Origin: Peribolospora baueri
Taxonomy: Eukaryota
Length of the DNA: 64,000 nt
Direction of reading: 5' to 3'
Assembly (NCBI GenBank): GCA_029717555.1
Contig: JAMDHS010000018.1
Coordinates: 124,001 to 188,000, forward strand
The position numbers and the translations under genes are program-made. How positions within the stretch are numbered: position 1 is the stretch's first letter; each line of letters starts with the position of its first letter. Shown piece by piece: positions 10,112 to 50,656 of this stretch. The notes beneath the pieces were generated by a model, which ran no database searches, was not told the DNA's origin, and worked only from the letters and a program-made list of their open reading frames with translations.

Positions 10112-11101
10112 ATGGCAGCAGCGGCGGCGGCGGCGGCCTCATCAACGGCTTCTCCAGCCGACACCTCTTCACCCGCGCCCGCCTCTCTCGCCGCGTCCGC
10201 AAAACCAGCTTACCGGATCGCGCTCACGGCGCTCACGCCCAACAACGTCGGCCAGCTCCGAAAGCTCAACTCGGTGCTCTTCCCTGTATCGTACAGCGAG
10301 AGGTTTTACAAGGATGTCGTGAAGGAGGAGCTCGAGGGCGTTTGCCAGCTGGGTGAGTTGATGTGGACGAGAGAGCGAGAGCGTTTTTCGAGAAGGGCAA
10401 CGAAGAAACGAAAATTGGCCCTGGCGCGTCGTTCGTGACCGCTCATTCTTCGGCTCGTCCCCGTTTTTCACCCTGGCCGTCCCGATTTGACGAAAGCTTA
10501 TCTCTCTTTTCCTTACTCTCGCCCTCGTCCCAACTCGCACTCCTCTTCATCTTCCTCCGACCCCATCCTCTCCTCCTCCTCCTTCGGCGCAGCCCTCTTC
10601 AACGACGTCCCCGTCGGCAACGTCTGCTGCAAGATCGAGGACACGCCGTCGCCTTCCTCCGGCGGCGACGCGCCGGGGTCGGGAAAGAAGCGTCGCCGAC
10701 TGTACCTAATGACGCTTGGCGTGCTCGCCCCCTACCGACGACTGGGCGTCGCTAGCGCGCTTCTCGACCACGTCCTCGAGAACGCGCGGAAGCCTCGTGT
10801 CGGTGCGCCTGAGCCTGTGGCCCCGCCGTCTGGCACCAAAGAAGGCGGGAAGGAGGAGGCGAAGAAGAAGTCGAGCGCGGGCAAGCCGGGATCGGGAAAG
10901 ACGGAGAAGGAGAGGGAGGAGGAGGAGGAGGAGGAGGAGGAAGAACCGCCGGTGGAGTCCATCTACCTGCACGTCCAGACGTCCAACGACACCGCACGGG
11001 CTTGGTACGAGAAGCGGGGTTTTACCGTCATCGAGACCGTGGGGAACTATTATAAGCGCATCGAGCCCGCCAGCGCTTGGGTGCTTGAGAGGAGGCTGTA
11101 A
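10112..11101 (+). CDS. NAA50: N-alpha-acetyltransferase 50 (NatE catalytic subunit, GNAT), 2 exons
   Basis: LTPNNVGQLRKLNSVLFPVSYSERFY; intron 10353-10592; LYLMTLGVLAPYRRLGVAS, IYLHVQTSN..A..WYEKRGF, YYKRIEP. Confidence 0.92.
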
Positions 11102-11697: not shown

Positions 11698-13344
11698 TCA
11701 AAGGTTGCCCGCGGCGGGATGCGCCTTCTCCCTCTTGTTGCGGTCGTCGATGGCCTTGACGAGCGTATAGATGGTTTGGAGCACCGGAGTGGAGATGCCG
11801 AGCGCCTTGGCCTTGCGGAGGACGTTGCCGTGGATGACCTGTGGGGGGGGGCGATGGGAGAGGAAGGTCAGAGCGATCCCATTGGAACGGATCCGACCGC
11901 GGAGCGGGAAGTATGGAGACGAGGCGAGCGAGAGGCGCGGGCGGCGAACGCACCTCCACCTCGGTTTCCCTGCCCCTCTTCACGTCCTCCATCATGCTGC
12001 TCATCAGCCCCGCCGGGCCGACCACCTTCTCCTGCGCCCTGGCCCTGCGATAAAGGCGCTCCGGCAGCGCTTCGTCCAGCGGCAAGCCGAGCGCCCTGGC
12101 GACGGCCACGACCTCTGCCATTATCGCGAGGGCAACGTCGATGGAGTGCGGGGCGGAGGCGGCAAAGTAGTATCCGGTGGGGGATTGGGTGACGGCGGTG
12201 ATGCCGTTCCACGCCGCGTTCCACGCCGTCTTCTCCCACCGCTTCGCTTGCATCGCCTGCGGCTCCAGCACGGTGAAGTGTGTGCCGCCGGCGGTGAGGA
12301 GCTTGGAGAAGCGATCGAGACAGGATTGTTCGAGCGCCGTGGGCGAGAAGTGGGCGGCATCGACCGGCAGGAGACCGATTTCCATCGCCTCTTCATTTCG
12401 GTGCTGGACCCGGGCAAGTGTCAGACGAGATAGGTGAGCACGAGGCAGACGCGCAAGTCAGGCGGAAACGAGACCGTTTTGCTCGCTCACCTCGACGACA
12501 TTGTGGGACGTCTGGACGGCCAACGCCCAAGTCTGACCGACGGAGGTGATTTGGGAGATGCGAAGGCACCGTTAGCGAGGCACCGGCGTGTCCAAGTCAG
12601 ATGGATGGATCGGTTGCGAGGACGCTCACTACACAAGTGATGATGGGGTTTTTGGGCCACCTCTGGCGGTAGGGATCCTCATTGCCCACGCCGTTCTGGA
12701 TGACGACGATCGTCGTCCCCTCCTCACCGGCCTCCTCGTCGGTTTCGGTGACGAAGGGCTCGAGCATCTCCGCCGGCGAGGGCCGCGCGTCGGGCAGCGC
12801 CTTGGTCGTGACGACGACGTAGGAGAAGCGGCGTGTGGAACCGGCGAGAGGTCGGGAGGTGGAGGCTGCGGGGAAGACTGCAGATGGGGAGAGGGACAAC
12901 GGGTTCGTTAGGGGGACCGTCGAGCGTGCAGGACACGCGAAGGTTGCTCACGGTCCGCGAAAGGGACTTGATGTTCGCCGAGCCGGATCGACTTGACGGA
13001 GAGACCCTTGGTGGGAGAAAACGCGAGCCACGATCCAATCGCAGTCAGTGCCTGGGGCTCGCGAACGCGCCAGTCTAGAGTCTGGCAATTGGCAAAGAAA
13101 AAAGTGTGTGAAAGGGGGAAAGCGGCAGAGGCTCACATTGTCTTTGACGGGCTCGTAGTTGCTCCTCGCGATCGCGCTCACGTTGACGAGGCGAGAGAGG
13201 TGGAATATGAGAGCGTAGAAAGAGCCGATGCTGTGCGTTCGGAAAGAAGAAAAGTAAAATGAGTGGGGCGGTGGGGGTGGAAGACGAGAGAAGGCAACAA
13301 ACGGCAACGCACGCGCCCAGGCCGACACACAGCACCTCCTCCAT
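11698..13344 (-). CDS. 2-dehydropantoate 2-reductase (ketopantoate reductase, PanE/ApbA family), 7 exons
   Basis: VLCVGLGA/IGSFY, ARSNYE, VVVTTKALP, IQNGVGNE, WEKTAWNAAWN, SSMMEDV..GRETEVE/VIHGNVLRKA..LGISTP; stop TGA at 11698-11700. Confidence 0.9.
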
Positions 13345-14475
13345 CTTCGCTGGCCTTTTGCAGTCATCGTCGACGGGGCTCATGACCGAGTGTGCTTTCT
13401 TTCTTCTCTTCCTTGAGGCGGCGGCGTGGCGGACGACGATGGTGAGGCGAACGCGACGTGTGCTATGGAAACAGGAGGGGAGGGGAGGGAGAGGAGGGGA
13501 AGACGAAGGGGGAACGTGCGAAGGGAATAGAGGGAGGAAGGAAGGGCGGGGGTTTCAGCCGTCGGGTCGGTCTCGTCGCTCTTCTATCTGACGGCGACGG
13601 GTTACTCACTCACTCCAGCAACAGCAACAGCAACAGACTCTCAACAGCGGTCAGTCCAGCTGAAAGAAGCAGCGACGCAGCGACTCAAGCGACGACGTGT
13701 GAACGGATGGATAGTGTAGAAGGAGCGAATCGAGGAAGAAGAAAGAAGTTATCTTGATCTCCACCTCGCTTCTGTCGGTACCGACCGACCGCGGACGGAC
13801 GGACGGACGATCGGACCGAGGGACCGGAAAGACGGCAGAAAGACGCGGCGAAGCGCGTCGCGACTCTTTCCCGTTTCTTCCCGGCTGGCCTGGGCAGGGC
13901 AGGCGGATGGATGAACGAGATCATACGGTAGATGAGATGAGATGAGACGAGAGATAGTATTCATAAAAACCAGGACAGATGTAGACAGACGGGCGACAGA
14001 GAGCGGAAGGAAAAGAAAGAGAAAGGGAAAGAAAGAGGAGACGACGAGGGCGAGGGCGGGACGAGCGAGGGGAGGGGCGGTCGTGAAAAGCCACGACACG
14101 ATAGGACGATCGAGGCGAATGGAAAAAGTCCGATAGATACGAGAAGGTTGAGGGGAGGTGGTGCTGACGTAGAGGGGGGGAAGGGAAAGCCGACGTCGAT
14201 GAGCCGGTCGAGTGAGTTGGGAAGGGGAAAGAGGGAAAGAAAGAAGAAAGGAGACAAGACGAGGCACTGTCCGCGAATCGAACAACAACCGACCGAAGCC
14301 GACCCACGACCCACGACGACGGCAAACCGACAAACTACCGAACATACCAAGGCGAGAGGGAGAAAAAAAAGGAAGGAAAAAGAAAAAGAAAAAGAAAAGG
14401 AAAAACTGGATTGGGAGGATTAGGATCCATGCCGTGGTCACTGCTCACTCAACCAAGAACTTTGAGCGGCAAGGG

Positions 14476-14678: not shown

Positions 14679-16590
14679 TCACAAGAGGTGCTTCTTGCCC
14701 GCCTCCTTGCATCTCGCGACGAGCTTCTTGACCTCTTGGCTCCTAGCGTGCGTCGTGACGAGAAGCGCATCGGGCGTATCGACGACGACAACGTCGTCGA
14801 CGCCGAGGAGGGCGACGACGCGCCCTGCGGCGGGGATGACGACGCCGCCAGCGACTTTCTCCGTCACCACGAGCGAGTGGTCGCCGAGGATGCGCGGCTG
14901 GTGTGGCTCGGCGGGGAGCATCTCGGCGAGCGATGTGAAATCACCCACGTCATCCCAGCCGAACGTGGCGGGCACGACGGCGACCTTGCCCTCGGCCGCC
15001 GCTGGCTCGGCGACGGCGTGGTCGATGGCGATCTTGGGCAGGTCGTGCCAGTACTTTTGGAAGGCCTCCTCCTTGGCCGCCTCGGTCGCCTTGGCGTCCT
15101 CGAGCACGTCCGCGATCTGGTTCAAGCCCCGGGCGAGGTTGGGCTCGTACTTCTCGAGGAGGTCCATGAGGACGGTGGCCTTGACGACGAACATGCCCGC
15201 ATTCCAGCGGTAGTCGCCCGTGGCGAGGTACTTTGCCGCCGTGCGCGCGTCGGGCTTCTCCTTGAACTGGAGCACGGTGCGCGCATTAGGCGACTCGTGC
15301 ATGCCCAGCTTGTCGCCCAGCTTGATGTACCCGAAACCGGTGGCGGGAGAGGAGGGGGCGATACCGATGGTCACCAGGTGGCCGGCGCGGGCGACGGCGA
15401 CGGCCTCGACGACGGCGTGCTCGAAGGCGTCCGCGCCGCTGATCATGTGGTCCGCCGCAAAGGAGCCCAGGACGGCCTCCGGGTTACGACGGGCGAGCAC
15501 AGCGGCGGCGAGGCCGATTGCGCCGGCCGATTCACGCGGTGAGGGCTCGGCGAGCAGGTTGGCCACTTGCAGCTCCGGCAGTTGGTCGCGCACGCCCGCG
15601 GCATGGCGCTGGCCGGTGACGACGACCAGGCGATCGGGGCCGGAAAGAGGGAGGAGACGGTCTAGGAAGAGAAGTCAACCATTGAGCGAACGTCCGCGTG
15701 CGCTGGTCGAGCTCTAGCAAAAGGGCCACTCACCCCACGTGTTCTGGATGAGCGTCCTGCCTCTGCCCGTGAGATCGAGCAAGAACTTGGGACACGCCTC
15801 CCTAGAGAGGGGCCACAAGCGGGTGCCGGCGCCGCCGGCGGGGACGACGGCCCAAAAGTCCTTGATGTCGTACATCTTGCGGGGCTCAATGGGGCGGGCG
15901 AAGGGGGACGAAGGGGGTTGGAGGAAGAAGGCGGGCGGTTGGGGGAGGCCGGCGACGCTGGTCCGGGGACTGGTGACGGGACTCCTGCCGACGCCGTTCA
16001 AGTTGGGAAAGCCACCAGGGCTTGGACTGTTGCTGTGGTGTTGAGAGTACTGGCCATGTGGGTGGTGTCCGCCGGGGACGCCGTAGCCGTAGCCGTTGGC
16101 ATGGCCGTTGGCGTGTCCGTTGCCGGTGCCGGCGCTGAGCGAGGACTTTACTTGGCGCTCCAAGTCGATGTTGGACTGGCGGAGGTCAGCGCACTCGTGG
16201 CGAAGGGAGGCAATGTCGAGTTGCTGTACGGCATCGAGAGGACGGGGGTGTGGTGAGCCAGGAGCTACGCAAGTAGTCGAGCAAGAAAATGGGGGGGGCT
16301 GGGATTGGGGCAGCGGGGCTCGGGCGGTGGAGACATATGCGCCTATATAGGTATCTTTCTATCTATCTATCTATCTATCTATCCTCCCACCTTCTTCCTT
16401 CTTCCGTCTTCCTTCCCCGCCTGGTCTGACCCGGATCGTCCAGATGCGAGAGCACGTCGTGGGAACAAGGGAAGAAGGTAGGCGGATGACAAGGGGAAGG
16501 GAAAGGTAAGCTCACCGACTTCTCGAGCATGGCCACGATCTGCCTGAGCATGGCGTCGGTGGAGTCGCCGGGGGCGAGGGGAGCTGCCAT
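14679..16590 (-). CDS. Mannose-1-phosphate guanylyltransferase, bacterial ManC-type, with N-terminal extension; 3 exons
   Basis: Exons 16590-16516, 16223-15734, 15661-14679. AGGAGTRLWPLSR..PKFLLDLTG, EPSPRES, ADHMI, TGFGYI, FKEKPD, WNAGMF, IDHAVAE, GWDDVG, VVDTPDALLV..QEVK. Confidence 0.93.
16358..16383 (+). repeat. (CTAT)n microsatellite in intron 1 of the ManC-type gene; (GAT)n also at ~16745-16771
   Basis: Direct inspection. Confidence 0.9.
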
Positions 16591-18196
16591 GGTGGGCGTT
16601 GTGTGGTGGGAGAAGTCCGCGAGGGGATGGCGGTGATAAGGGCTGAGCTCGTGAGGACGGGGCGGAGAGGGAGACCGGAGGGGAGGGGAGGGGAGGAAGG
16701 AGGAGGAGGAGGAAGGGCAGCGATGGGAGATGGGAGGAGGGGAGGATGATGATGATGATGATGATGATGATGGTGAGCGAACAAGAAAGAGCGCAAGCAG
16801 TCCGATGTGCGATGTCGGCTGTCAGTGTGCCGTTGACGTCGTCCGTTGTCGTCGCCGCCCTGAAGTGACAGACCAGCCTCGAGTGAGCGCGCCAGCGACG
16901 AGCCTAAGCCCGAGCCAACGAGCCGTAGCAACCGACCGTCGATCTGCACGCGCCTCCGATTTCAGCCATCATCAGCCACCCATCAGCCAACAGCAGCCAT
17001 CGGCCCCCAGCCTCGCACAGGTCGCCGCAGCAGCTGCGCAGCCGGATCATCGTCGCGTCCACCCCGGCCATTCCTTTTCTAGCTCGCCTCCAAGCCCAGC
17101 CCACTCGCATCGAACACAGCCATGCCCTCCTGAACGAGCGAGGAAGGATCGAGCGCGTGCGAGGGATCCTCCTTTTCCGGTCTTGCTTCCTGCCATCCTT
17201 CCCTTTCCTCCAACTTCCATCCCGCCCTTCCGTCGTCCTCCCGTCGCCCACAACATACCGCCGCCCTTCTCTCCTCCAGCCCCTTCTTACGTGCGAGCGA
17301 ATGAACAAACGTACTTTACTTCCCTCGGAACCCGCCCTTCTCCCTTCCATCCCTTCCTCCTCATAGCCCATCATATCAGGTCCCGCGCCTACCACCGCCC
17401 TCTTCGACGTCGACGACCTCCGCTCCGCTCCACGCAGGCAAGCCTCCGCGTCGGAAGCTAGCTAGTCTTGTATTCGTTACTTCCTCCTCACCCGCGAGCC
17501 AAGCAAAGCAAAGCAGCACACACACAGACGCCCGCGCTTCTTGAACGCTGGTCACGCACCGTGCCCTCTGCTACGCACATGCGCGGGAAGGAAAAGAGGA
17601 CAGCGCGATCGGCGGGCGAACTGAAATGCTTGCGTTCCCGGATCGCCCGTCCACCTTCCGCACAGACCTAGTGATTCGAGTACGGAGAAGACGGGAATAG
17701 CTCGACGGCGCGTGTACATGGGCAATGAGTGTGGTCACTCTCGGCAGGCCAACACGCCTGCACATCAGCGTCGCATGGCTCGGAGCGGCGAAGGGGAGAT
17801 GACACAGGTCGCCCTGCAGCGCACCGCCGCACGGGATCGTCGCGGAGATCGCCCCGAAGAGGTAAGGGTAAAGAAAGAGATGGAGGGAGGACAGCGTCCG
17901 TCTCCAGGTCGCTCGCACCGACTGCGGCTCGCCCCGATACTACCCGCGTCTGCGCGTCGATCGCCGTCTTCGCCGCTTTCTCCGCCCTCGCCCGCCGTCG
18001 TTGCGTCCAACGCACGGATCCCGATCTCTCTCCATTCGCCAGCCTATCGCGAGACCAACCCCTCCCCTCGTCTCCCTCTCCCTCTCCCTCTCCGTCTTCT
18101 GTCTTCTGTCGTCGTCTTCGGCTTCGACTTGAGTGGCCATCGACGAGTCTTTGCTTTGCCATTCGATTGGACGATCGACGACGGGCCGAGCGAGAG

Positions 18197-21006
18197 ATGG
18201 AAGAGAGCGTTTTGGTGTACGGCTTGGGAGCGTGAGCATCCGTCCCCCTTCCTTCTCCTCTCCTTTTTCGCTTTCTTTCTTTCACTCTACTGTGCGACTG
18301 TACGCTAATTCTAACTACTACGTCTCCTCCAGCGTCGGCACCTTTTACGCCTCCCTTCTCGCCCGCTCCGGCTCGGCGCGCGTGAGCGCCGTGGTGAGGA
18401 ATGACTTGGAGTACGTCAGGGCCAAGGTGCGTTGAGGCAGCCGAGGCTGCCCTTCTTCTTCAACACGACACGCATGACTGGGTTCTCTTCCTCTTACCTC
18501 TCCCTCGTACCCCATCAGGGCCTGACCATCCGGAGCAAGGCGCTTGGCGAACAACGTTTCTTCCTCGACGAAGGTGAGCCTCGCACGATGTCTTCATTAG
18601 TCGCTTCGGCTCCGCTCCGCGCCTCTCTTTCGTCTCCTTCCTTCACCTCTCATTCCCACTCGCTTTTCTTTCCCGCAATCCCACACCGCCCGTCGGCAGT
18701 CTTTTCCTTCAACCGACCTCCACCCACAACCCGCCGCTCCTTCTCCTTCATCCTTGTCACCGCCAAATCCGTCCTCGACGCATCCCCTTCCCTGCCCGAG
18801 TCGCTCGAACCTTACGTCACCGACGGGGAGACGACGATCGTACTGTTGACGAATGGGATGGGAACGGAGGAACTCATTACGGCTAGGTGGCCTAGGAACG
18901 CCGTGTTGGTCGGCTTGGTGAGTTTCAGGGACGGCGTATGCAACGACATATGCGGATGCAGGACCGTGGATGGCCGCCGCGGACATGGATCGGTCTAACG
19001 TTAGAGAACGTTGGGAGGAAAGGGCCGCTCATAAATGCGTTTAAACCCATTCATTTGGCTCCTGCAGCCGTGGGTTGTCGCTACGAAGGTAGACCCAGGT
19101 GTCTTTGAGGTGAGCGAGCGTCCTTGTCCGACCTCCCGTCCGACTTGCATTCAACCGAGGCCTCGATGTTCAAACAATCCCTTCCTGATACGCATACTCC
19201 CTCCCCCCATCTCCTTCCTCAGCACGCCAACGACCAAGGCCTCGAACTCGGCATCCTCCCTCGCCAAGGCGACGCCACTTTCGCCGCGGACGAGTCCCGC
19301 CTCCACGTCTTGGCAGCGCTGCTCCGTCGCGGCGGCGCCGAAGTTGACGTGCTCGAACCTGCGCGCCTTGCGCAGCGGAGATGGGAGAAGCTCATCTGGT
19401 GGGGCTTTCACAGATTTGCACGGATGGCTGAGGCGCCTTTCGGATGGTCCCTCCAACCGGACTGACCATTAAATTTCCTTTTCTTTCCCCCTTTTCTGCG
19501 TTCTTTCGGCCGACTGGCAGGTCCTCCACCTGGTCCGCATGTACGTCGCTCTCGATGCTCCTAACCGGATCATTTCTATCCTCCTCGCCCGAGGCACCCA
19601 GGGCTGCACTCAAGCTCATGGACGAGCTCATCTCCGTGGCGAGGGCGGCAGGTGTGTCACTCAGGGAAGGTCTGGCGGAAGACATGCTCGCGAAATGTCA
19701 GCGTGTCGGCGCGGGCTCGGCTGGTGGGGTAGGGGAAGAGGGGATGAGGACGACGATGATGGACGATGTCAGAGCGGAGAGGAGGACCGAGGTCGAGGTA
19801 AGTCGCTGCGGTCCCCGGTTCGCTACACTTCGCGCGTCCGTCTGCGTGCTGACAGCCTTACGTCTTCAATTCTCGGCATTTTAGGCACTCCTCGGGTACC
19901 CTCTTCGCAAAGCTCGCGAATTGGGTATTACCACGCCCGCGCTAGAGACGAACTATGTCCTGCTCAAGGCGATCGACGAGCGCAACGCGAGATCGCGCGA
20001 GGAACGCAAGCGCTTCCGGTCTCCGAAACGCGCCCGTCACCTGCAAGCCTACTCCTCGTCCTCCGGCGCCGCCGCCACTGCGTTTCCAAGGCCGGACCGC
20101 AGTCCCGATAAGCTTTCTATTGTTGTCGAGGGGATGACGGGAGAGAAGCGCAAGGCAATGACGCCACCGCAAACCGACCTCCGTCCTTCTTCCCGACCTC
20201 CTCCGCCGGCGAGACACTCTGACGCGGAGGGCGGAATGCCCGCCACGCCGGGCTCGGGATCCGTCTACTCCTTCCTCGGGCCTTCGCCTTCCATTGTCGG
20301 CGTCTCTCCCCATTCCCCTTCTTTACCCCTCGCCCGACCCTCCTTTGCCGCTTCCCCCACCGCCTCCATGTCCCGCGGCATCGCCGCCGCCGCTGCCCCC
20401 GCGCCCAGCTCGACCTCCTCGCCGGAGCGCAAACGCCGCCGCCGCACCACAAAGGCCGAGTCCGCGTTCCTCCTCGAAGCCTTCGCGGAGAACCCGTTCC
20501 CGGACGCGGCGCGGCGCAGCACGCTCGCTCAGGCGCTCGGCATGAGCGCGCGCGCCGTGCAGGTGTGGTTCCAGAACCGGAGGAGCGCGGAGAAGCTTCG
20601 CGCGGGGAGGTACGATCCGGCGAAGACGAAGAGGGAGGACGGAGACAGAGACGGGGACGGGGACGAGGAGCATGGCGGGTGGGGTTTGGGGGAAGGGGAG
20701 GACTGGAACGAGGAGGGGAATGGGGAGGGGGGAAGGGAGGTTCGAGAGCGTGGGAGCGCAGACGGTCATCGCGAGCTTTGGGCAGAGGCGCCCGAGCAAG
20801 GCCTACGGCGAGGCGGGCAGACACCGACGAGGGGCTCCCGCTCGCACCATCTCGCCCACGACACCGGCGGTGGCTCCGAGGACGCGAGCCGGCCCGACGC
20901 CGCAGAGTGGACAACTGGCGCGGCCGTCGCGGCGGCTGCGGTTGCAGCATCGGCATCGGCTTCCGGCGTCGAGGTTGGCTTGGCCGCGCCCATCGAGCTG
21001 TCCTGA
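18197..21006 (+). CDS. Ketopantoate-reductase-like (PanE/ApbA) domain fused to a C-terminal homeodomain, 8 exons
   Basis: MEESVLVYGLGA/VGTFY..VRND../GLTIRS../ILVTAKS..LLTNGMG../PWVVA../..WEKLIW/..TTMMDDV..RRTEVE/. The last exon 19885-21006 (ALLGYPLRKARELGITTP..KAIDERN) continues without a stop to RKRRRRTTKAESAFLLEAFAENPFPDAARRSTLAQALGMSARAVQVWFQNRR at ~20428-20600. Confidence 0.85.
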
Positions 21007-21547
21007 TGCGGGTACTTTGAGAAGAGCGTGAGGTCTCTCTCTCTCTCTCTCTCGCTGTCTCTCTTTCTTCCGTTTCGCCCTTCTTCCGTCTTCAGATCCC
21101 ATTTCGAATTCCTCCACCTCGTGTGTCCATCTCGTCGATGGCCCCTTTTCCCGCACATACCATTTTTGAGGCGGCAGGATTTGTATCGCCCACCCGCATG
21201 TGACCTATCTATACTATACGTGCGGTACGGTACGACTGCTATCACTATATACTAGTGCTCGGCCCTCCTCGTCCCCTTCCTGGCGATGCGTGACGTGATG
21301 GGCATGGAAGGGAAGAGAGAGAGGCCCAGTGAACGCTGATGCTGAAGCGGGAGGCGGAAAGAAGCGCTCTGCCGCTGGCTGGTCGGCTCAGCTCGGCGCC
21401 AGAGTCAAGAGTCAGACAGACGGCTTCAAACGAGGAGGAGCTCTTGGCCATGTTTCACCTCCCTTCCGTCGCTTGGTCTGGAAGTGAAGTGAAGTGATAT
21501 GGTGTGATGTGATTGATAGATAGAGGACACATGAGGTGGAGAGATAG

Positions 21548-28173: not shown

Positions 28174-29451
<1,278 letters not shown>

Positions 29452-30935
29452 GGAATATGTATATGAGTCTAAGAAGTCTAGACGTCTATAGATGTAAGGG
29501 AAGTCGGTCTATGAAGAGATGTCTGGGAATATGGCAACCAGGAGGGGTGGTGGTAGGAAGAACGAGCCTCACTCGACCCTGGCTTGGGTATATATCCCCT
29601 TGCCCACCCTGGACGACATCGTTCTTCGGGTGACTGGCCCCGTACCAAAGAGGAGCTTCGGAGCGCCATGAGAGAGAGCAGAGGAGCAAAAATGATGACC
29701 AAGGGGGGGTCGAAGACGAGGTGGTTGACAAAACAGGAAGGTCGCCCGGACCGGGTCTTGGAAGGAGCGGACCTTTAGGCGGCCATATTTGGCATGACGA
29801 CAGTCTGCAGCAAGGACCAGCGGCTCCTCCTGTCTAAGAGAGGATGCACGTGTGGATATTAGATATTGAGAAGGGAAAACATGGGCTTAGAATTGGAAAG
29901 CAGCTGGAGTAGCACTGGTTGAGGTATGGGCAGGTGAGTCCTGGTGTTGATCTATTGGAGGGCGGGTGGTCCCGAATGGGGTTCTGAACGAGATTGCCTT
30001 CCCGAAAAGGAAGGTGCTCGTAGAGGGCTCGAGCAACACTGGCTATTGGAGACGTCGACTTATACTCTTTTGTATAGTCAGCAGTCGCAGTGGACGAGGG
30101 CTGGACGAACGAATTTCTTATGGTCCACTCCGAAGGGTCGGAAGGAACTTTGATGGACTGGCGGCCACAATCAGTCAGTCAATCAACCGCTCGAACCGAG
30201 CATCGTCCATTTCTCATCCCAAGCGAGCTGCACTCGCCCTCTGGAGCAACTCCGAGCGAGGGAAGAGACAATGCGCCGAGGGCGGGGGGAACGCACAGAG
30301 ATAGAATCTTTCGGCGCAAAGCCAAGCAAGATTGTCGCGTCTGTTGCGGGCGCCTCTGCTTGGCTGCGCAGGTGAAGAGAGATAAAGCCGAGATCGGACG
30401 TCATATCAGCGGAAACGTCTCACAAGCTTCCAGCTACGGAAAAGTAGCGCTGAGCAAGATGGCCAGCAAGTGGGCAGGTCAGCAGTCTGTCCACCACTAC
30501 GGATGTACGATGGAACGAGATGGAGCGACGGGGATCGCCAGCGGTATCGATCCGGTCCGGCTCGTGCCGGATCGGGCGGCGCCGGCGGCCTAAGCACGGC
30601 TGCGGCAAGCAGGCCTTCCGTTTACGTCGTCCCCGCGCGCGTCCTTGCGGCAAGGCAAGAAGAGCGAGGGCGGGACCAGGACCGAAGAAAGGACGACGGC
30701 CAGGTCGGCGCACCGCGGCACGTGCAGGAGGATGGCGGCGTGAGAACTTCGCCGTTGCCGCAGCAACCGTGTTTCGTCACCACCATCTGCAATCGACTCC
30801 ACTCCGCTCATCCTTCTCCGCATCCAACCCGACGACATTCTACCAGCCATTCAGCCATCTCGTCACCTTGTGTGTAGTCGAGCCGAGTCGGGCCGAGCCG
30901 AGGCCGCGTCGAGGCGTGGAACAGAGCCGATTGCT

Positions 30936-33900
30936 ATGTACATATATGACGAGGAACGAGAACAGATGGCGCTTGAGGAGCATCGTCGGCTTGGCCAGGC
31001 GCAGAACGGTGACCGTGACGGTGACGACGACGACGATTACGACGACGACGACACCCAGGGCCCCTTCTGCCTGTGTCGCGGGCCGGATGATAAGGAGTCG
31101 CCCATGATTTTCTGTGATGGTTGCGAGGACTGGTGAGCGTTTGTTATCCTCCCTTTTCTTTCTCTAAGGGGGACGGGACCTTGGTCTCTTCCCCCTCTTC
31201 CTTTGCAAGCCTGCGCGTGAGTGTGGGCGTGTCTTTCCCCGTGCGGCCGGCAGACCTGTCCTGACGATGTTTGTCCGTTCCTCGCTCCCAGGTTCCACTT
31301 TCGATGCATCGATCTCTCCGAAGAAGATGCGGAGACGATCGGACAGTATTACTGCCCCAATTGCACCGCGAGGACCGGGCTGAGGACCAAGAGTGAGTGT
31401 GGATGCGTTGCCAGTGGCCCGAGGGAAATTATTCGGGTGCTGATCAGACCATGCCGCTATTCCTCACTTTCTTCAATCAATCAGAAATATGGGAACTACC
31501 GCCTTCGCAAGCTGGCTCGGACTTCGATGACGCGGACGACGAAAACAGAGAGGCTGCACCATCAGCAGCCGGAGAAGACACCGAGAAGATCAATAAAGGA
31601 AAAGCGCCGGCAGCCCGCAATGCGAGCAAGGGCGTCTTAAGGAAGAGTGCAGGGACGAGCACGGCGAAAAAGGGCGTCCAGAAGAAGGCCGCCGGAGTAG
31701 CCAAGACGGGAAAGGGGAGCAAAGGCCAACGGCGTGCGCGCTCTTCAACGCCTCCGGAGGATGAGGAAAGCTCGGAGATGGAGATAGAGGAGGACGCTGA
31801 TGATATCGATGATGAGGACTATGTGGAGAAGGAGGAGAACACTGCAAAGAACGTGAGTAGACGACGACTTCCGTCAAAGCAACCGCACTCCGATGCTGAT
31901 GCGGCCAACTCCCTTTTGTCGTACGTTTTGTGCTCCTTCTAGGCACTTCCTGCACCCTCGAAATCACCTACGATCCCGTCTCCAGCGCACGTCAGCAAGA
32001 AACCGCCATCAGCGACAAAGCGAAAAGCGTCCATTCCAGCTGACGACGCGTCACGGGGGAAGAACCGTCGGACCTCAATGAGCTCACGCACTTCGGCCTC
32101 GCCTCAACACGAGCGGGAGGGTCACGGCCAGAGTCAGGACAAAGGCGCCGGGAAGGCAGGGACGTCGGATTCGGCCCATGCCGACCCTGTGCGCACACAT
32201 TGCTTGGAGCAGTTCAAGACGACGCTTAGGGCCATTTTCGCTTCCAGCGACGCAACAACCCAGGCGGAGGGGGATAATTCTGTGGTGTCTGCCTCGGAAC
32301 AAGCAGCGTTAGAGTATGCCACTTCCTTGGAAAGCGCGTTGTTTGAGCTGCACTCGACCTTGGACGCGAAGACGCGGCGGCGCGTGCCGTCGCACTTCTA
32401 CAAGGAGAAGTTCCGCTCGCTCTTTTTCAACCTGCGGGACCGGAAGAACACATTACTGCGCACGCGTATTGTCTCCAACGGACTCTCTCCCTCTGCCCTC
32501 GCCAACGCATCCAGCGCCGATCTCGCCAACGAAACACTGCGCAACATGGCGGAGAGCGTTCGAAAGGCGAGCATGGCCGATTCGATTAGGGAAAAACAGA
32601 AGGGTCCGATCACCAAGATGACCCACAAGGGCATGGTGATGATTGAGGACGGTGCGATCACGGATGGCGGCGGCTCGACGAATAGGGAGACGGAGGCGGT
32701 GGCAGAGCCAATTGAGCCCATCATCCATGGACCCGTCAAGCGTGATTCCATCTCCGGTACTCTTCAGAAGAGCCCGATTACGCCATCGAGGGAGGATTCT
32801 CTTCAATCTCCCACTATAGGCTCAGAAATGCGGTTCTCGAGAGATGAATCGCTTGACCGTGGTGGCCGTGATTCGCCTCCGCAGGCTCACGGCCGAGAGG
32901 GAGGGCGTGTTGGCTCGATCAGTATGGATCAGCGGTCTCCGGCGGCGGCGACGCATAGGGCGTCTTTCGACCTGTCTTCAGTGTGGGCATCGGTTAAGGC
33001 TCATGCACCGGCGCACGAAGAGGTAGGAGAGGCGGGGGCAGAAGCGAAAGCAGAGGGAGAGGGAGGGCATGGCTCTGCTGGAGAAGCGGCAAGTCCAGAG
33101 GGTGATATGTCGGCGGCCGATATCGAAGAGAAAGAAGAGAAGGGGAATGTGGATGAGGAGTATGATCCTTTCGATTTCGAGGGCAAGGGTCGAGGGAGCG
33201 AGATGGACGACATGGACATCGACGACATCCTCAATCCAGATGCGGTCAAGTCTAACGCTGGGGAGCAGCCAGCTGATCAGGGCGACTCTGCCGCGCCTGC
33301 CGACGCCGATGTGGCAAAAACAGCTTGCGCTGGTGCTGAAGTACCGAAAGTCGCTGAGGCACTCGCCACATCCCCTCCGCTTCCCGTCATCTGGCGAGGC
33401 AAGATCAGTCTCCCAGACGAAGGGGCCTTCCCAGCACAGGTAACGCAGGTGGGCGGACGTCCGCTGGGCGAGGCTCCGGATATCTGGAAGCATTTTTTCC
33501 CCACGGACTCGCTCACCATCGAAGGACGCGTGCCTGTCGAGCGTTCGTCTGAGTATCTCGTCCAATCTAGACTGTCTTCCAAGACCGAGCTTGTCCTCCT
33601 CGCTATTCGTCTGTCCGACGACACCCGCGCTGACGATGACGCCGCAGCCGCTGCCGCGCGACGGCAGGGAATGGAAAAAGTGCTTCACTTTCTCAAACAC
33701 CGTTCCCGCTACGGCGTCTTCCTACCGCGAAAGGAGAGCAAGGCCACGGTGAAAGATTTCTATCTAGTGCCGCTGGAGGAGGAGGACCCTCTGCCGGAGT
33801 GGGTAGAACTTCTGGAGAACCATAAGGTGCTCGAGAAGGGGAGAAGGGTGGGGGCCATGTTCCTCGGGGTAGCTGTTTTGCATAAGACGGCGTTCCAGCC

Positions 33901-35071
33901 CAACCAATCCGCACAGCCGTCGTCGTCTGCGCCGGTGAGCAACGCGCCACCGTCGTCCAGCGGCCCAGCCAAGCCTGTCGTCCTCCCTCCGGGCCCTCCG
34001 CCCAAGCCGCCGACTTTCCCCGCCCCGACCGCCGCATCGATCGCTCCTCCCGCCGTACCGGGCTACACACCGTCATCGACATCGGCGCTTGCACAGTCGC
34101 AGTGGCATTCTCAACCTGGATCCTCTCTCCCACCGGCCACGACGATGCCAGCCGCACCGCCGAATCTTTCAGCTCTTCAAGAGCTGCTCAAGACCAACCC
34201 TGATGTCCTTAAGAGCCTTCTCAACACCTCTGGCGGCGGCACGGCTTCGACTGGCGACGGTCACGGCGCATCGGCGGCTCAGGGAACCACCCACAGTCTG
34301 GGACGATCGACCGCCCTACCGTCTGCGGCTGCGTCTGCGGCTGCCCCTGCTCCCCCGGGTGCCCCGCCCGCCTTACCACCCCAGCTCGCCGCCTTGGCGG
34401 CCACCCTGGCGGCCCAAGGTGGCGGCGCCTCGGGCGGGTATGACCCTCAGCAGCGGCCGCCAGCACAGCATGGATCCTATTCCCACCCGTCTTCACTCCT
34501 CGGCGGAGGACTGGGTTCTTCCTCCCCTTACACTGGCGCATCTTATGACAGTGGCACAGGCGGCGGCGGGTACGGTCCTACGGCTTCTTCCCAAAGCAAG
34601 GGAAGTGAGGGCGACCGTTTCGGTGCCGCCGGTGGCGCCGCGCGTGGTTGGACGAACGAGCGTGGCGGAGATGTGCTTGGCGAATGGCATCGACCGAACG
34701 GGGGGTCCTATGGTGGAGGTGGAGGGGAGTATGCGCCGGGGCCGCCGGGTCCACCTCCGGCAGCGCCCGGAGGGAGGGGATACGACTACGACTACGACTA
34801 CGACTACGACTATGGGCGCGGGCCCGGCCCTGGGCGGGACTATGGGTACGGTGGAGGCTACGGTGAGAGACGAAGGCCCAAATACGATGACGGGGCACCA
34901 CCACCACCTCCCCGGGACTACGATAGGGATGGTTATGCAGACGACGGCCGTGGGGGAGGAAGTGTTGGGGGCTTCAGGAGAAGCGGTGGAGGCGGGCGAA
35001 GCGCTAGGGGAGGGCTCCGTGGAAGGCGCGGGGGCGGTTTTCGCGGCCGAGGGAGGGGCAGAGGATATTGA
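30936..35071 (+). CDS. BYE1: BYE1/DIDO-like transcription factor (PHD finger, TFIIS central domain, SPOC domain, Pro/Gly/RGG tail), 4 exons
   Basis: PHD FCLCRGPD..MIFCDGCEDW/FHFRC..YYCPNC; TFIIS_M YKEKFRSLFFNLRD.KN..LR; KMTHKG; SPOC IW.G.I..QVGG..IEGRV..VKDFYLVPL. The start codon is uncertain. Confidence 0.88.
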
Positions 35072-35627
35072 AGTTTTCAAGGGCAAGCTGTTGGTCGTCC
35101 GAGGCAGGAAGGGGCGAGGGGTCGCATCTGTTCCTGCCTTGCCCTCTATTTGCTCGTCGCCTTCCATTCTATACTGTCCAGTTTGCTTCTCTTCCTCCCC
35201 CCATCGTTCCTCTACGGCGACATTCTCGCTGTTGTCTCCTCTCCCTCTTTTAGCAGTCATGTTTCGTCTGTGCTTTCGCCGACTCGCAGTCTCCACTTCC
35301 TCGCACGCAATGGGCCTCGCTGTTCGAATGTATTATCGCACGCACGCTCTCACTTCCTTTGAGCCCACGGCGACGATGCGCTCCTTCGCCTCGAACGACA
35401 CGCGCGGCCTCGTTCGCCTGCGCGATGGCTGCTGTGCGAGCAGACCGGTTTGGATGGCGTTCAGGAACTTGAACGGAGTAGTCCGGCTGGCGAGGCGTTC
35501 AGCACCAGCTAGTTGAGCGGGCGGGCGAGCGAGCGACAGAACAGAACACACCGACGAATACATCCTGATGTACATACAAATTCACACCGTCCGAGTCAGC
35601 CTCGGTCCATGACCCTGTTCAGAATGC

Positions 35628-42180: not shown

Positions 42181-45100
42181 ATGGCATACCCCGCAACCAT
42201 GTCCGCCTCCGCCGCCTCGGCCTCCGGCGCCGGGCCAAACGGCGTCCAGCGCCGGCTCACCACGGCCAGCGTCGCTGGCAATCGCAACACGAACAGGTAC
42301 TCGGTCACCGCGCTATATAGCATGGCCGCCGAGCAAGACGTGGAGGTGGAGGACGATTTGGCTAGAGGTGAGTGACGCCGGCGAGCGTGCGGACCTGTTC
42401 TTCTCTCTATCTCTCCTTCTCGGTCTGTCTGTCTCTCTGTCTGTCTCTCTCTGTGTGTGTGCGTGTGTGCGTGTGTGCGTGTGTGCGTGTGTGCGTTTGT
42501 GTGTGTGTCTCCATTCCTGTCTCTCTTCTCACTTCCTCTTCCCTTTTCCTCCCCTCGCATTTAGCGCAAAGACGCCTTCGCGAGCTCAAAGGCCGCATCT
42601 CGGCTCAATCCAAGAAAAACTTTGTCCTTGAGCGCGACGTCCGCTATCTGGACGGCCGTATCGCCTTGCTCATCGCCAACAGGATGGCCGCCGAAGAGGT
42701 GTGTGACGTGACGTGACGTGACGACGGGTTATGAACCGCGGCTTAGGTAGGTCCTCCGCTCACCCCTCCCCTTCTCCGGCCCGTCTTCCGTGCAGCAATC
42801 CGAAGTGGCCAGTCACTTGGAAGAGACCGATCCAATGTCCGGAACCATGCTCGACGATAGAAGGACGCAGGTACATCCTCTCTCTCCTCCTTCCGCTTTC
42901 CTCCCCCTCCCACTCACACTCTCTCTCTTTTTGTACCCACCCTCTCAGCAATACTCTAATCTCTTTTTCCTCCTTCAATCCGAGCCTCGACACGTCGCCG
43001 CTCTTTGTCGCCTCGTCAGCCTGACCGAGATCGACACCCTCCTCCAGACCGTCATGTTCACCCTCTACGGAAATCAGTACGAGAGCAGAGAGGAGCATCT
43101 TCTGCTCACCATGTTCCAGGTCAGTCCCCACGCCGCCATCGCTGCCGTCGCCTGCCGGTCGCCCCTCTTGGATGATCGTGATCTCTCGCTCATCGTCCCT
43201 TCCCCCCTCCAGTCCGTCCTCTCCGCCCAGTTCGAGACGGCCACCGAGTTCGGCTCGTTGCTCCGTGCCAACACGCCCGTGTCGCGTATGATGACCACCT
43301 ACACCCGCCGCGGTCCCGGTCAGAGCTACCTCAAGAACGTGCTCGCCGAGCGGATTAACAGCCTCATCGAGCACAAGGATCTCAACCTGGAGATCAACCC
43401 GTTGAAGGTGCGCTTTGGCCATCGACGCTTCGTCGCCGCTCGCTCCACTGACGTTCAACCTACCCCTCCTTTTCGACCGTACAGGTCTATGAGCAAATGA
43501 TCCAGCAGATCGAGGAGGATACCGGCTCGATCCCGCCGGACCTGCCTCGCGGCGTGGCCCCAGAGATGGCTGCGGAGAACGCAGACGTGCAGGCGATCAT
43601 CGCCCCGCGGCTGACGATGCTCATGGAGATCGCCAACTCGTTCCTGCTCACCATCATCAACTCGATCGATGAGGTGCCGTACGGCATTCGATGGATCTGC
43701 AAGCAGATCCGTAGCCTCACAAAGGTGAGCGACCAAGGCGACCCGCCGGTGCCCATGCGGAAAGGCCATCCGTAGCTAAGCTTCCATCCTTCTTCCTTCC
43801 CCCACGTTTCGTTCAACCTCGCCCTTCTTCCTTCCGCCACGTTCGTTCAACCCTCGCCCTTCTACCCTTCCCAGCGCAAATACCCGGACGCCACCGACTA
43901 TGCCATCTGCTCCCTCATCGGCGGATTCTTCTTCCTTCGTTTCATCAACCCGGCCGTCGTCACCCCGCAGGCGTACATGCTCGTCGATGCGCCCCCCTCT
44001 AAACACCCCCGGCGGACGTTAACCTTGATCGCCAAAATGCTCCAAAACCTGGCCAACAAGCCGTCGTACGCCAAGGAGCAGTACATGATGTCCCTCAATC
44101 CCTTCGTCGAGGCCAACAAGACGCGCATCAACCAGTTTTTGAACCAACTCTGCGAAGTCGGCGACTTTTACGAGACGCTGGAGGTGGGTTCGCTTCGATT
44201 TGGCGCTGTCCTCGTGGGGATGTCGTTGTTTGTCGCCTCGTCGCTGATCGTCTGCTTTTCGCGGCGCCGCACAGATGGATCAATACATGGCCCTCTCGAA
44301 AAAGGACTTGCGCATCTCCATCACTCACAACGAGCTGTATAACACCCACGCTCTCTTGCTTCAGCACATCGACACTCTGGTAAGAAGCCGCGAGTCTTCT
44401 TCATCTATTCACCCGGGTCATGCCCGTCGGCCACGAGTTCGCTCGACTGACACTCCCTCTCCCCCGCTCCACTCGATAGGCCCCGAACGATAAGCAACAC
44501 CTGCGCATCTTGCTTGACGAGCTCGGTGCCGCGCCCGCACAGGTGCCGCGAAAAGAGAACCAGACGATCGAATTGCCGCTGTACAGTCGATGGGAAACGC
44601 CGATTCAGGACCTGACGACAGCCCTGATGAGCGAGAACAACGTGACTCAGAGGTGGGTGATCAGGGCACGGACGGCGGCAGGAAGCTGGCGTGGCGGCTC
44701 AACCCCCCTCCGTTCCCATCTTCTGGTTCCACAGCGACATCCTCTACATGGAGACCAAGTCCATCTTCGTCCAGCTCATCCGTTCCATGCCTCAGTACGC
44801 CGAGAAGCGACCGATCAACCTGCCAGCGATCGCGGAGAAGGCGGCGACGACCAAGGACGCGACGCTGGTGCGCAAGGGGATCAAGGTCAAGGAGATGCTG
44901 CGCGAGCTCGAAGAGCTCAAGGTGGTCGACCGGAGGGACGGATACAAGCTCATGACCGACGAGGTCGCCGGCGAGCTTGTGCATCTCGGCAACATGCGGG
45001 AGAAGGTGATGGATGAGTCGCGGAGCCTGGAGGAGGTGTACAAGACCATCTGCGATCACAACAACTACCTCCGGAGCCAGCTCGAGACGTACAAGAGCTA

Positions 45101-45620
45101 CCTCCAGAACGTGCGCATGACGACCGGCGGCGTAAAGGACAAGGGCCACGCCGGCGTGGGCGTCGTGACGGTGGGAGGAAAGGAGAAGAAGCCGATGAAG
45201 TCGCAGGTGCTGGGGCCGTATCGGTTCACCCACGCCCAGATGGAGAAGGACGGCATCATCGTCGAGTCGAGCGTGCCGGAGAATCGGTGAGTAGTGCAAA
45301 GTGACCGTTGAAGGGCGATGGACGCCGGGGCGCGTCGGGATGGCCGCTGATTCACACATCGTCGACCCACGCGCGCGCGACCCGGGTGCAGACGAGCGAA
45401 CATTTTCTTCAATATCACCTCACCCTCGCCGGGCACGTTTATCATCGCACTCCACTACAAGGGGCGAGAAAAGGCGATTTTGGAGATGGATCTCAAGCTG
45501 GACGACCTGCTGGAGAAGCAAAAGGACGGAGTGAACCTGCTCGACCTGGAATACGTCCAGCTCAATGTCCAAAAGGTACTCGGCCTGCTCAACAAGACGT
45601 TTGCCAAGCGCAAGGTCTGA
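42181..45620 (+). CDS. Ras GTPase-activating protein (fungal Gap1/GapA type: RasGAP plus RasGAP_C), multi-exon
   Basis: [82 protein letters not shown] at 45618-45620. Confidence 0.95.
42452..42508 (+). repeat. (GT)n/(GCGTGTGT)n microsatellite in RasGAP intron 1
   Basis: Direct inspection. Confidence 0.9.
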
Positions 45621-48411: not shown

Positions 48412-50656
48412 TGTAATCGTCGTAAGAACTTAGCGCTCGCAGTGATGCTTCGGGCGAACTCGGCGGAAAGGGTGAGCATAGGCCGAGGTCACGCAAGACA
48501 TTCGTTGTGCAGTGGTGCTACACAACCTCTTGAAGGAAGGTGACGCCGACTTGCGCAGGAAGCGATTTCGGTCGATCCACTGGACCGCCCAGTGTGAGAG
48601 CGCCTTTCAGGACCTCAAGGCCGCACTCACTGCGGCGCTAGTCCTCGCTCTGCCTGACCTCGAGCGACCGTTCACCATCGAGACTGACGCCTCGGACCTC
48701 GCAATTGGCATGGCGCTCTTGCAGGAGTCACTCGCCGACCACAAGCTTCACCCAGTGGCCTGTGATGGCCGCAAATTAACCGCAGCCGAGCTCAACTATC
48801 CGGTCCATGAGAAGGAGTTGCTCGCTGTTAAGCATGCCCTACGGGTGTGGCGCCCATACGTCGACAACGGCTGCACCGTCACCATCCTCACCGACCACGA
48901 GAGCCTCAAATACTTGAAGTCCGTTCAGGCGCCATCCAAGCGCCTTGCGAGGTGGATAGATGAGTTCGCGGAGTACGACCTCGACATTCACTACTGGCGC
49001 GGGCACGACAATGTGGTGTCCGTTGCCATCAGTCGCCGCCCTGACTTCTTTCTAGCGATGCAGGCAACCGACTCTTTCGAGAGGTTCATCGCTACGCTAA
49101 CGGCCTACCTCACGACGGGCCAGCTCCCAGGCAAGAGCGACTCAGGCGATCAGGAACTGCGCGACGCCGCTGGTCACTATGCCATGAACGAGGTGGGAGT
49201 CCTATGCCGGAAAATCGACGACGGTGGGCTCGCGCCATACGTACCCCCGCTTTTCCGACGCGCCTTTGTCGAGAGGATGCATTCGGCTTACGGGCATCTC
49301 GGGCACCCCGGCCTTGGCGGCGAAGCGACCAGGAGCGCGAGCGGCACCAGGTCATGGCCAAGGCAGCCATTGCTCCCTTTGAGCGATGGGGCATTGATGT
49401 GGTGGGACACCTCCCCACTGGGGTCAGTGGCAACGAGTACATCATCACTGCCATTGACTATGCGACGGGATGGGTCATTGCGAAAGCGACGAAGTCCGTT
49501 AAGGCACGCGACATTGCCGACTTCCTGCATGACAAAATCGTCATGCAATTCGGCGCCCCAAGCGAGTTTGTCTCTGACCAGGCGAGAACTTCTTGGCGCC
49601 AGCTGTCGAGGCGTACATGAAGCGCCTCGAAGCAACTCATCATGCCGCGAGCGCATACCACCCGCGCACTAATGGCAAGGTGGACAGCTTTAATGGCACG
49701 TTCGGTCGCATGCTCACCAAGTAAAACCACGGGCCAGCCGTCAAGCTTTGGGACCAGTTGATCAAGCGGTCTTCGCCTGCCGTGTACGTGCACGCCACCA
49801 TGCGGTATTCGCCCTTTCACCTCGTCTACGGGTTTAAGCCTCGGTTGCCCTCGACGCTCCCGGCGCCAACCTCGGGGACGCTGACTTAGACAAGCGTCTC
49901 AAACGAGTTCACACCGACCGGCGCCTTGCCACGCGCAGCGCTCGCGGCAGCACAAACGCGGGATGAAGTTGTCCGAGAGCACACTCTGAATGTTGGCGAC
50001 ATGGTGATGGTTCGGAACGAAGCCCCGCAAAAGCTGGAATCTCTGTGGTTTGGGTTATACCGCATTACCAAGCGGCACCGCTGGGCACATATGCCCTAGT
50101 TGACCCAACCAATCGCCCCTTGCGGTTCCTCGTTCATGGAAACCGCCTCAAGCCATCTCGCGGCGCGAACGGTGCCGCCGACTTGTGGACCTCCCCCGCA
50201 AACAGAACCGGCTTGGGCCGAGCAGGGATGCGGCTTGCAACTCACGCCGACTCTCAGTCTGTCGATGCGGCGACGCTCCGGGAGGCGACCCGAGACCCGG
50301 CCCAGGACATCCTCGGAAAGCGCGCATCCGCAGGCCGCCCAGAAGCGCAGGCAGACGTGGCAAAACAAACGTCAGGCGGCCGCCGCCCACGCCGCGGCGA
50401 CGAGGACCTCGCTCCCAGACGCTGGGTCGCCTCTAGATGGAGGAGGAGGAGGCGCTACCGGAGCGAAGAACCCTTCGGCTCGACCTCGCATCCGCCTGCG
50501 CCCACACTCCTTGCTGTTTCGACCCATTTTCGCTTCTACTCCGTCGCGCGTCTTGCGCCTCACGCTCCCTACCGACTTCCGACATAGCGCTCGAATGGGC
50601 CTCATGACCCCAACGACTTACGAACAGTCACGAATCACGACGGATAGTCAGTAACA
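48412..50656 (+). mobile_element. Ty3/gypsy remnant: RT connection/RNase H plus degenerate integrase and tail
   Basis: WT..C..AF..LK.AL..ALVL.LPD..RPF.IETDASD.AIG, NYPVHEKELLA, TDHESL, RLARW; integrase H...GH, PFERWGIDVVG.LP, AIDYATGW, FGAP..VSD, YHPRTNG.V, with frameshifts and stops. The ends (TGTAA.. / ..TAACA) are tentative. Confidence 0.9.

Follow-up and report, generated by a model that had tools for sequence, protein, structure and literature searches.

A reductase-like gene runs on into a homeobox

We analysed a stretch of 64,000 nucleotides (nt) from Peribolospora baueri (GenBank assembly GCA_029717555.1, contig JAMDHS010000018.1, positions 124,001 to 188,000 of the forward strand), referred to as the window in the following. 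At positions 18197-21006 of its plus strand a reductase-like gene and a homeobox lie in one reading frame, which is predicted to encode a chimeric protein. The gene model was built from GT..AG boundaries and frame continuity. It consists of eight exons and seven GT..AG introns with a coding sequence of 2019 nt that contains no internal stop and specifies 672 amino acids (aa), of which residues 1-333 correspond to a PanE/ApbA-type reductase. The donors are, in order, GTGAGC, GTGCGT, GTGAGC, GTGAGT, GTGAGC, GTGGGG and GTAAGT; six acceptors read CAG and one TAG. In a stop-to-stop listing of frames exon 8 appears as a single open frame of 373 codons, which is preceded by TTTTAG and begins with ALLGYPLRKARELGITTPALETNYVLLKAIDERN. 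The features of the locus and of a stand-alone paralog of its reductase half are given in Table 1.

Table 1. Features of the reductase-homeobox locus and its paralog; positions refer to the window.
Feature	Position	Strand	Evidence or remark
Exon 1: start codon; GxGxxG motif, first half (MEESVLVYGLGA)	18197..18231	+	Donor GTGAGC; intron position and phase as in the paralog
Exon 2, 94 nt: remainder of the Rossmann beta-alpha-beta unit	18333..18426	+	Weak ApbA match (E 0.13); exon 2 of the paralog also 94 nt
Exon 3, 55 nt	18519..18573	+	Exon 3 of the paralog also 55 nt
Exon 4: N-terminal core of ApbA with VTAK and LLTNGMG, which correspond to Lys72 and Asn98 of E. coli PanE	18700..18917	+	Pfam ApbA, E 1.6e-7; alignment to the paralog
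Exon 5, 42 nt	19068..19109	+	Exon 5 of the paralog also 42 nt
Exon 6: RRWEKLIW at its end (catalytic-Lys equivalent); unusual donor GTGGGG	19223..19398	+	Paralog without an intron at this point
Exon 7: body of ApbA_C; SSTWS in place of the family's N..N; TTMMDD; RTEVE (Glu256 equivalent)	19521..19797	+	Pfam ApbA_C, E 6.6e-10
Start of exon 8: final ApbA_C helices (ALLGY...AIDERN)	19885..19986	+	Pfam profile 96-124; homologous to the last exon of the paralog
Linker, 147 aa, predicted disordered; many Ser, Pro and Ala residues	19987..20427	+	Frame listing; donor and ATG scans; AlphaFold2
Basic patch RSREERKRFRSPKRARH, by eye like a nuclear localisation signal	19990..20040	+	Sequence
Sole AT-rich patch within exon 8	20101..20130	+	Composition
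Pyrimidine-rich tract, 0.67-0.85 C+T, like the 5' flanks of this genome	20245..20424	+	Composition windows
In-frame ATG, 20 codons ahead of the homeodomain; candidate start of a 212-aa stand-alone homeobox protein	20368..20370	+	MAFFT; G+C at third codon positions
Homeodomain, 60 aa, non-TALE	20428..20607	+	Pfam, E 8.5e-16; PDB search; AlphaFold2
C-terminal tail: acidic Gly/Trp-rich stretch, then an Ala-rich helix	20608..21003	+	Frame listing; AlphaFold2
TGA, first in-frame stop of the reductase-like gene	21004..21006	+	Frame listing; gene model
Stand-alone paralog of the PanE/ApbA family: 7 exons, 366 aa, own stop	11698..13383	-	tblastn of the fused model against the window; ApbA_C, E 4.1e-19

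The reductase half and its paralog

Exons 4 and 7 match the Pfam families ApbA (PF02558) and ApbA_C (PF08546) with 31.5 bits (cut-off 22.2) and 39.9 bits (cut-off 22.7, profile positions 15-94), respectively. The match of exon 8 residues 2-30 to the last part of the ApbA_C profile, which is 125 positions long, stays below the cut-off when taken alone (E 0.0083) and directly continues that of exon 7. The NCBIfam model TIGR00745 (apbA_panE) recognises the same two exons, exon 4 with E 2.1e-5 and exon 7 with E 2.9e-7; the single-exon scores of 30.1 and 24 bits have to be read against a cut-off of 141.35 that is set for the whole protein. All Atlas feature matches of exon 7 (30/30) are ApbA_C clusters.

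The dinucleotide-binding motif of the fused copy, GLGAVG (GxGxxG), spans exons 1 and 2. It is retained together with VTAK, NGMG, WEK and TEVE, as seen in the alignment to the paralog. The roles of Lys72, Asn98, Lys176, Asn180, Ser244 and Glu256 in E. coli PanE are taken from PMC3478992. By alignment, and with the roles as given there, WEK, NGMG and TEVE are the equivalents of the catalytic triad Lys176, Asn98 and Glu256. The segment RRWEKLIW aligns without gaps to RWEKTAWNAAWN of the paralog and to RWQKLVWNIPYNG of PDB 8iwg (motif RWQKLVWN in the PDB entry). With its dinucleotide-binding motif and its triad both kept, the fused domain is predicted to have retained NADP(H) binding, and probably still binds this cofactor.

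The substrate-contact positions present another picture. The equivalents of Asn180 and Ser244 are not kept in the fused copy, which reads K-L-I-W-S-S-T-W-S versus K-T-A-W-N-A-A-W-N in the paralog and TTM versus SSM. Following the residue roles in PMC3478992, it thus has Ser in place of both Asn180 and the conserved Asn after it, and the position of Ser244 is taken by Thr. The substrate pocket of the fused reductase hence looks altered, as judged from these replacements. The same source also describes that fungi employ the PanE/ApbA fold on substrates besides ketopantoate.

A distance of ~4.8 kb separates the two PanE/ApbA paralogs, which are divergently oriented. Intron positions are shared between them and, as the table indicates, so are the exact lengths of three short exons; one additional intron (19399-19520, donor GTGGGG) is found in the fused copy only. 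The paralog matches PDB reductases. Its C-terminus reads KREKAHPAAGNL and is followed by the stop, 12 codons beyond AIDDRN. Identical residues occupy 138 of 348 aligned positions (40%). At this level of identity the duplication is, on sequence grounds, an old one, yet the fused copy is undisrupted over seven exons. Seven intact exons at such a distance from the paralog make the reductase copy look still functional. The locus shares both Pfam domains, GxGxxG and the triad equivalents with the PanE/ApbA family at large (E. coli PanE, PDB 8iwg and 3hn2, the fungal ketoisovalerate reductase KivR) and differs from it by a C-terminal extension of 339 aa that carries the homeodomain.

The homeodomain half and its relatives

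Residues 182-237 of exon 8 match Pfam Homeodomain (PF00046) over profile positions 1-56 of 57 with 58 bits (cut-off 22.9). In the homeodomain RKRRRRTTKAESAFLLEAFAENPFPDAARRSTLAQALGMSARAVQVWFQNRR these 56 residues fall on 56 profile positions, so that there is no 3-residue loop insertion as in the TALE class. Under the standard homeodomain numbering it displays R5, L16, F20, W48, F49, Q50, N51 and R53. At E<=0.001 a search of the PDB with exon 8 returned 92 homeodomain sequences, the best of which is DUX4 (4.8e-19).

Exon 8 alone was folded with AlphaFold2 in single-sequence mode (mean predicted local distance difference test score, pLDDT, 51.7). The ApbA_C tail forms helices at residues 7-12 and 18-44, residues 55-179 are disordered, and the homeodomain helices are predicted at residues 180-201, 208-218 and 222-239, with modest confidence (pLDDT of the block 62-80). 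Because every canonical DNA-contact residue is present, DNA binding of the kind expected for the stand-alone relatives is predicted for this homeodomain as well.

An exhaustive search of representative proteins with exon 8 gave 3285 matches, of which we examined the best 150. Most of them are multi-homeodomain proteins. The closest relatives with a single homeodomain among these 150 are Yox1-like proteins of Ustilaginomycotina, such as Sporisorium scitamineum SPSC_02520, Violaceomyces palustris IE53DRAFT_101006, a 'homeobox transcription factor' of Malassezia restricta and the 'Homeobox protein yox1' of Malassezia psittaci. Their homeodomains are 57-68% identical to that of the window over ~40 residues. 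The family arm E[KI][KR]RRRRT and the flank AEK[LK]R[AS]GRY have their counterparts in ERKRRRRT and AEKLRAGRY of the window. In the Malassezia-type relatives the domain begins ~20 residues past Met1, which matches its distance from Met 20368 in the window. Based on the shared arm and flank the homeodomain is taken as a member of the Yox1-like family. In contrast to the window protein, the Yox1-like relatives have no PanE/ApbA domain, and they show no similarity to it beyond the homeodomain and its flanks.

One open frame connects both domains

In the DNA, the first terminator of the reductase-like gene is the one at position 21004. No donor-like GT (GT[AG].G.) is found in 19885-20562, the first being located at 20563 within the recognition helix, and no in-frame ATG exists between the ApbA_C tail and 20134. 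Hence any mRNA which uses the acceptor at 19884 and reaches the homeobox encodes the chimera. The remaining two frames are closed by stops at 20109-20111 and at 20135-20137.

Reading by eye revealed no homopolymer longer than 3 nt in 19986-20109, and neither reductase gene contains a frameshift, which makes an assembly indel between the domains unlikely. Both reductase genes are intact multi-exon open reading frames (ORFs) with canonical splice sites, which speaks for a good local assembly quality.

The sequence-only reading of this stretch had described a last exon that is entered through the acceptor TTTTAG at 19884, opens on the final PanE/ApbA_C helices, continues without stop or required intron through a linker of ~150 aa and ends with a complete WFQNRR-type homeodomain and an acidic tail. 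The ORF 19885..21006 confirms this description, the linker measuring 147 aa. The Pfam scan which that reading had proposed as a check returned ApbA, ApbA_C and Homeodomain, all above cut-off and each from a single exon, and its remark that the paralog stops ~12 codons past AIDDRN agrees with our model of this gene.

Three other ways of reading the region were tried and rejected. For a GC-AG intron from 20043 the only acceptors, as read by eye, would make the intron 58 nt long or put the product out of frame. At 20610 (GTACGA) an intron would be followed by purine-rich sequence, unlike the introns of the fused gene. As to a gene on the opposite strand or in another frame of the linker, the frames 20120-21091 (-) and 20223-21017 (+) contain no Pfam family.

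The two-domain architecture as encoded in the DNA is thus supported. We rate the locus as a candidate for a transcription factor that would have gained an enzyme-derived domain through fusion with a neighbouring gene. In our preferred reading one continuous frame would join a duplicated PanE/ApbA-family NAD(P)H-dependent 2-oxoacid reductase gene to its former downstream neighbour, a Yox1-like gene, giving rise to a predicted chimera; we regard the chances of this reading as evenly balanced. The same holds for the actual production of the 672-aa protein, which may well take place and may equally fail to do so.

Search for fused relatives

With the best 150 of 3285 matches examined, no reductase part was detected in the proteins compared, neither by blastp (0/154 proteins) nor by Pfam (0/20). 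A metagenome scan gave 0/15 loci with both domains, all of them being homeodomain-only. A word-indexed protein search with exon 8 returned two unrelated matches when directed at longer proteins and two in the near search, distant homeodomains only and none of them fused; the search for longer proteins with exon 7 returned none. In Atlas look-ups the clusters were either homeodomain-only or ApbA_C-only, none fused.

Among the relatives examined there is accordingly no conserved family of fused reductase-homeodomain proteins, and with no fused relative there is no sign of conservation of, or selection on, the junction. By sequence neither domain stands out within its family, except for the substrate-contact residues of the reductase; the combination was found nowhere in these searches. 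The fusion appears to be lineage-specific and young.

These results also bear on two points of the sequence-only reading. Its author knew of no described PanE-homeodomain protein, and none turned up in our sequence searches or in the literature as far as titles and listings tell. It had further named relatives which always encode two separate genes as an observation that would speak against a fusion. The homeodomain relatives examined do lack the reductase (0/154).

The linker and its possible origin from an intergenic spacer

The composition of the linker deviates from that of the domains on both sides. Its middle part (20065-20328) shows no codon periodicity, with G+C fractions of 0.64/0.66/0.65 at codon positions 1, 2 and 3 (GC1/2/3) as compared to 0.62/0.50/0.75 in the reductase part and 0.68/0.57/0.92 in the homeodomain. 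GC3 rises at 20368, from 0.68-0.69 in the linker to 0.92-0.95 from there on; taken by itself, the GC3 of the linker (0.65-0.69) falls within the coding range of the window and is not discriminating. In the ~120 nt ahead of 20368 the pyrimidine content reaches 0.67-0.85 (windows at 20245 and 20305). For comparison, C+T amounts to 0.65 in the 5' flank of the gene, 0.63 in its introns and 0.51 in exons 1-7. MAFFT places Met 20368 on Met1 of four Malassezia-type proteins. More speculatively, the AT-rich patch at 20101-20130 may be what remains of a 3'-end region. By its pyrimidine content and codon-position composition the linker looks like lately recruited non-coding DNA.

Codon usage was evaluated as log-odds trained on 2625 Pfam-supported codons, a score which discriminates too poorly given its spread over coding windows (mean 9.1, standard deviation 15.9). 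The ORF frame scores best through the linker (7.9 bits versus -57.6 and -29.1 in the other two frames). Near 20677-20785 in the C-terminal tail the score is ambiguous.

As a separate observation, CT dinucleotide or CT-rich tracts lie beside genes on the sense strand, for instance at 18040-18130 and 21030-21060. They are open in most frames and can inflate ORF lengths.

Following the preferred reading, the order of events may have been as follows. The reductase copy would first have lost its terminator codon. The former spacer of ~380 nt (19987-20367) would have happened to be open and in frame, so that transcripts running from the reductase promoter to the 3' end of the homeobox would encode the 672-aa chimera. 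In this protein the reductase-like domain would be followed by the basic patch resembling a nuclear localisation signal (NLS), the disordered linker, the homeodomain and the acidic tail. A short homeobox-only product starting at Met 20368 may still arise via an internal promoter.

How often a spacer of this kind is open by chance was estimated from 2000 composition-matched dinucleotide shuffles. The linker stayed open in 334 of them (17%), and the 49 codons ahead of the first ATG in 787 (39%). Across the whole window 8.2% of all 144-codon frames are open. From the shuffles an in-frame run-on after stop loss has a chance of a few percent, rare but not extraordinary. Unlike the openness of the linker taken by itself, the domain matches lie far outside what chance would give.

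Part of this evidence suits an alternative in which the locus consists of two units. The homeobox would be expressed alone from its own promoter in the pyrimidine tract (20245-20365), with Met 20368 or an ATG ahead of it as the start. The upstream copy would have been disabled recently by a strain-specific stop loss with non-stop transcripts, or the continuity would be a sequencing or assembly error; in either case no chimera would accumulate. The position of Met 20368 on Met1 of the Malassezia-type relatives, the resemblance of the tract upstream of it to the 5' flanks of this genome, the GC3 step and the missing codon periodicity in mid-linker are all expected of such an arrangement, and the chance openness of 17%, multiplied by one third for agreement in frame, leaves room for it. 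The homeodomain relatives seen, among the best 150 of 3285 matches and at 15 metagenome loci, are all stand-alone, and the reductase copy, with Ser at two conserved Asn positions, scores lower than its paralog. However, a separate reductase gene requires a stop, whereas this one has none and no plausible intron provides it. The other two linker frames are strongly negative in codon score, and there is no long homopolymer where an indel would have to sit. Seven exons and fourteen splice sites that are intact in a copy only 40% identical to its paralog fit an old pseudogene poorly, and Met 20368 has a T at position -3. We consider two separate units possible, albeit somewhat doubtful.

Several observations weigh against the production of a chimera as proposed in the preferred reading. 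The open linker is weak evidence in view of the shuffles, whether taken over its full length or over the 49 codons ahead of the first ATG. These 49 critical codons score 0.7 bits, which is inside the non-coding range (mean of the best of three frames -3 to -5, standard deviation ~5 to 8). No relative with the same architecture is present among those examined. The Asn-to-Ser changes and the Pfam ApbA_C score, which is lower than that of the paralog (39.9 versus 69.6 bits, over unequal spans), could equally mean relaxed constraint. Finally, if the old poly(A) site were still used, it would produce a reductase mRNA without stop that would be degraded, and no chimera would accumulate.

A proposed sensor function and its relation to known systems

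The sequence-only reading went further and inferred an enzyme domain recruited as a ligand or redox sensor, or as a dimerisation module, for a transcription factor. On this view the chimera would be an established, selected factor. By sensing NADP(H) or a 2-oxo/2-hydroxy acid, or by dimerising, its reductase-like part would govern the homeodomain in DNA binding or activation. The cofactor motif and the catalytic triad are kept while a substrate-contact Asn is changed, which, with residue roles drawn from PMC3478992, would fit binding without turnover. In addition, the ORF frame is the best-scoring one through the linker. The NLS-like patch is situated immediately past the enzyme domain. By eye, RSREERKRFRSPKRARH may resemble the nuclear localisation consensus K-K/R-x-K/R. 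On the other hand, both domains together occur in 0/154 related proteins and 0/15 metagenome loci, the searches for longer and near proteins gave no fused form, and the linker resembles lately recruited non-coding DNA. We thus regard a role of this kind as improbable. What is supported of the earlier interpretation is the encoded architecture; the enzyme domain as ligand sensor, redox sensor or dimerisation module is not supported, no fused relative being present among those examined and several features pointing to a young read-through. Whether by cofactor sensing, by dimerisation or as a tethered enzyme, an influence of the reductase module on the homeodomain factor is conjecture.

Proteins with related properties are known from elsewhere. 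The plant HD-ZIP III/IV homeodomain-START factors combine a homeodomain and a small-molecule-binding domain in one chain; they are ancient and conserved, and their ligand domain is not derived from an enzyme. One HD-ZIP factor of plants, PDF2 (PDB 9lpe), is among the PDB homeodomain matches to exon 8. The HD-START proteins come nearest to the idea of a ligand-controlled homeobox factor, but they have the START fold and another domain order, compared to a Rossmann/6PGD_C-like module here. In CtBP, NmrA, Gal80 and the bacterial Rex a Rossmann-type NAD(P)(H) module couples the redox or metabolic state to transcription. To our knowledge none of these is fused to a homeodomain, and most work as co-regulators that lack a DNA-binding domain; Rex does possess one, a winged helix. 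Their mechanism is the one which the sequence-only reading had proposed; the locus in the window, known here from its sequence, is likened to them by concept. It is not a member of the HD-START, CtBP, NmrA, Gal80 or Rex families.

That the chimera is both expressed and selected, with a nuclear reductase module that binds NADP(H) or 2-oxoacids and gates the Yox1-like homeodomain, seems a long shot. If true, it would link coenzyme A/pantothenate or redox metabolism to cell-cycle or developmental transcription within a single chain, and would be the first case, apart from the plant HD-START factors, of an enzyme-fold ligand domain on a homeodomain. Should the chimera be made at all, the locus would represent a natural experiment in the gain of a sensor domain at an early stage, at which the ancestral start codon and a promoter-like tract would still be visible in the linker. 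It would also be a tractable object for testing whether the fold of a metabolic enzyme is able to regulate a homeodomain. Otherwise the locus would be a warning for gene prediction, as open GC- or CT-rich spacers would then mimic domain fusions in unannotated fungal genomes.

Other features of the window

In the 64 kb neither a tRNA nor an Rfam family reaching its gathering score was detected. Housekeeping genes comprise those for a GDP-mannose pyrophosphorylase-like protein (14682-15674, -), a polyprenyl synthase (56350-58248, -), a eukaryotic porin (61873-63075, -), an APH-family kinase (288-1178, +), a GNAT acetyltransferase (10439-11098, +) and an aldo/keto reductase (28798-29508, -). These genes mark the window as fungal. 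Their GC3 ranges from 0.59 to 0.93.

A frame of 1042 codons at 31943-35068 (+) contains TFIIS_M and SPOC domains in a Bye1/PHF3-like architecture. Its residues 640-1042 are negative in codon usage though part of the training set, and hence may not be coding in that frame. As a 525-codon frame additionally overlaps at 33939-35513, an unrecognised intron or a frame change is possible in this gene.

Pieces of Cyt-b5 and FMN_dh in successive ORFs at 52346-54386 (-) look like an intron-split gene for an L-lactate dehydrogenase of the cytochrome b2 type, and RasGAP and RasGAP_C spread over three ORFs at 42751-45287 (+) look like an IQGAP-like gene. The ORFs at 48482-49669 (+) and 49045-49617 (+), with RT_RNaseH (E 4.6e-32) and an integrase core (E 1.8e-6), probably belong to a fragment of a long terminal repeat retroelement of the Ty3/gypsy type.

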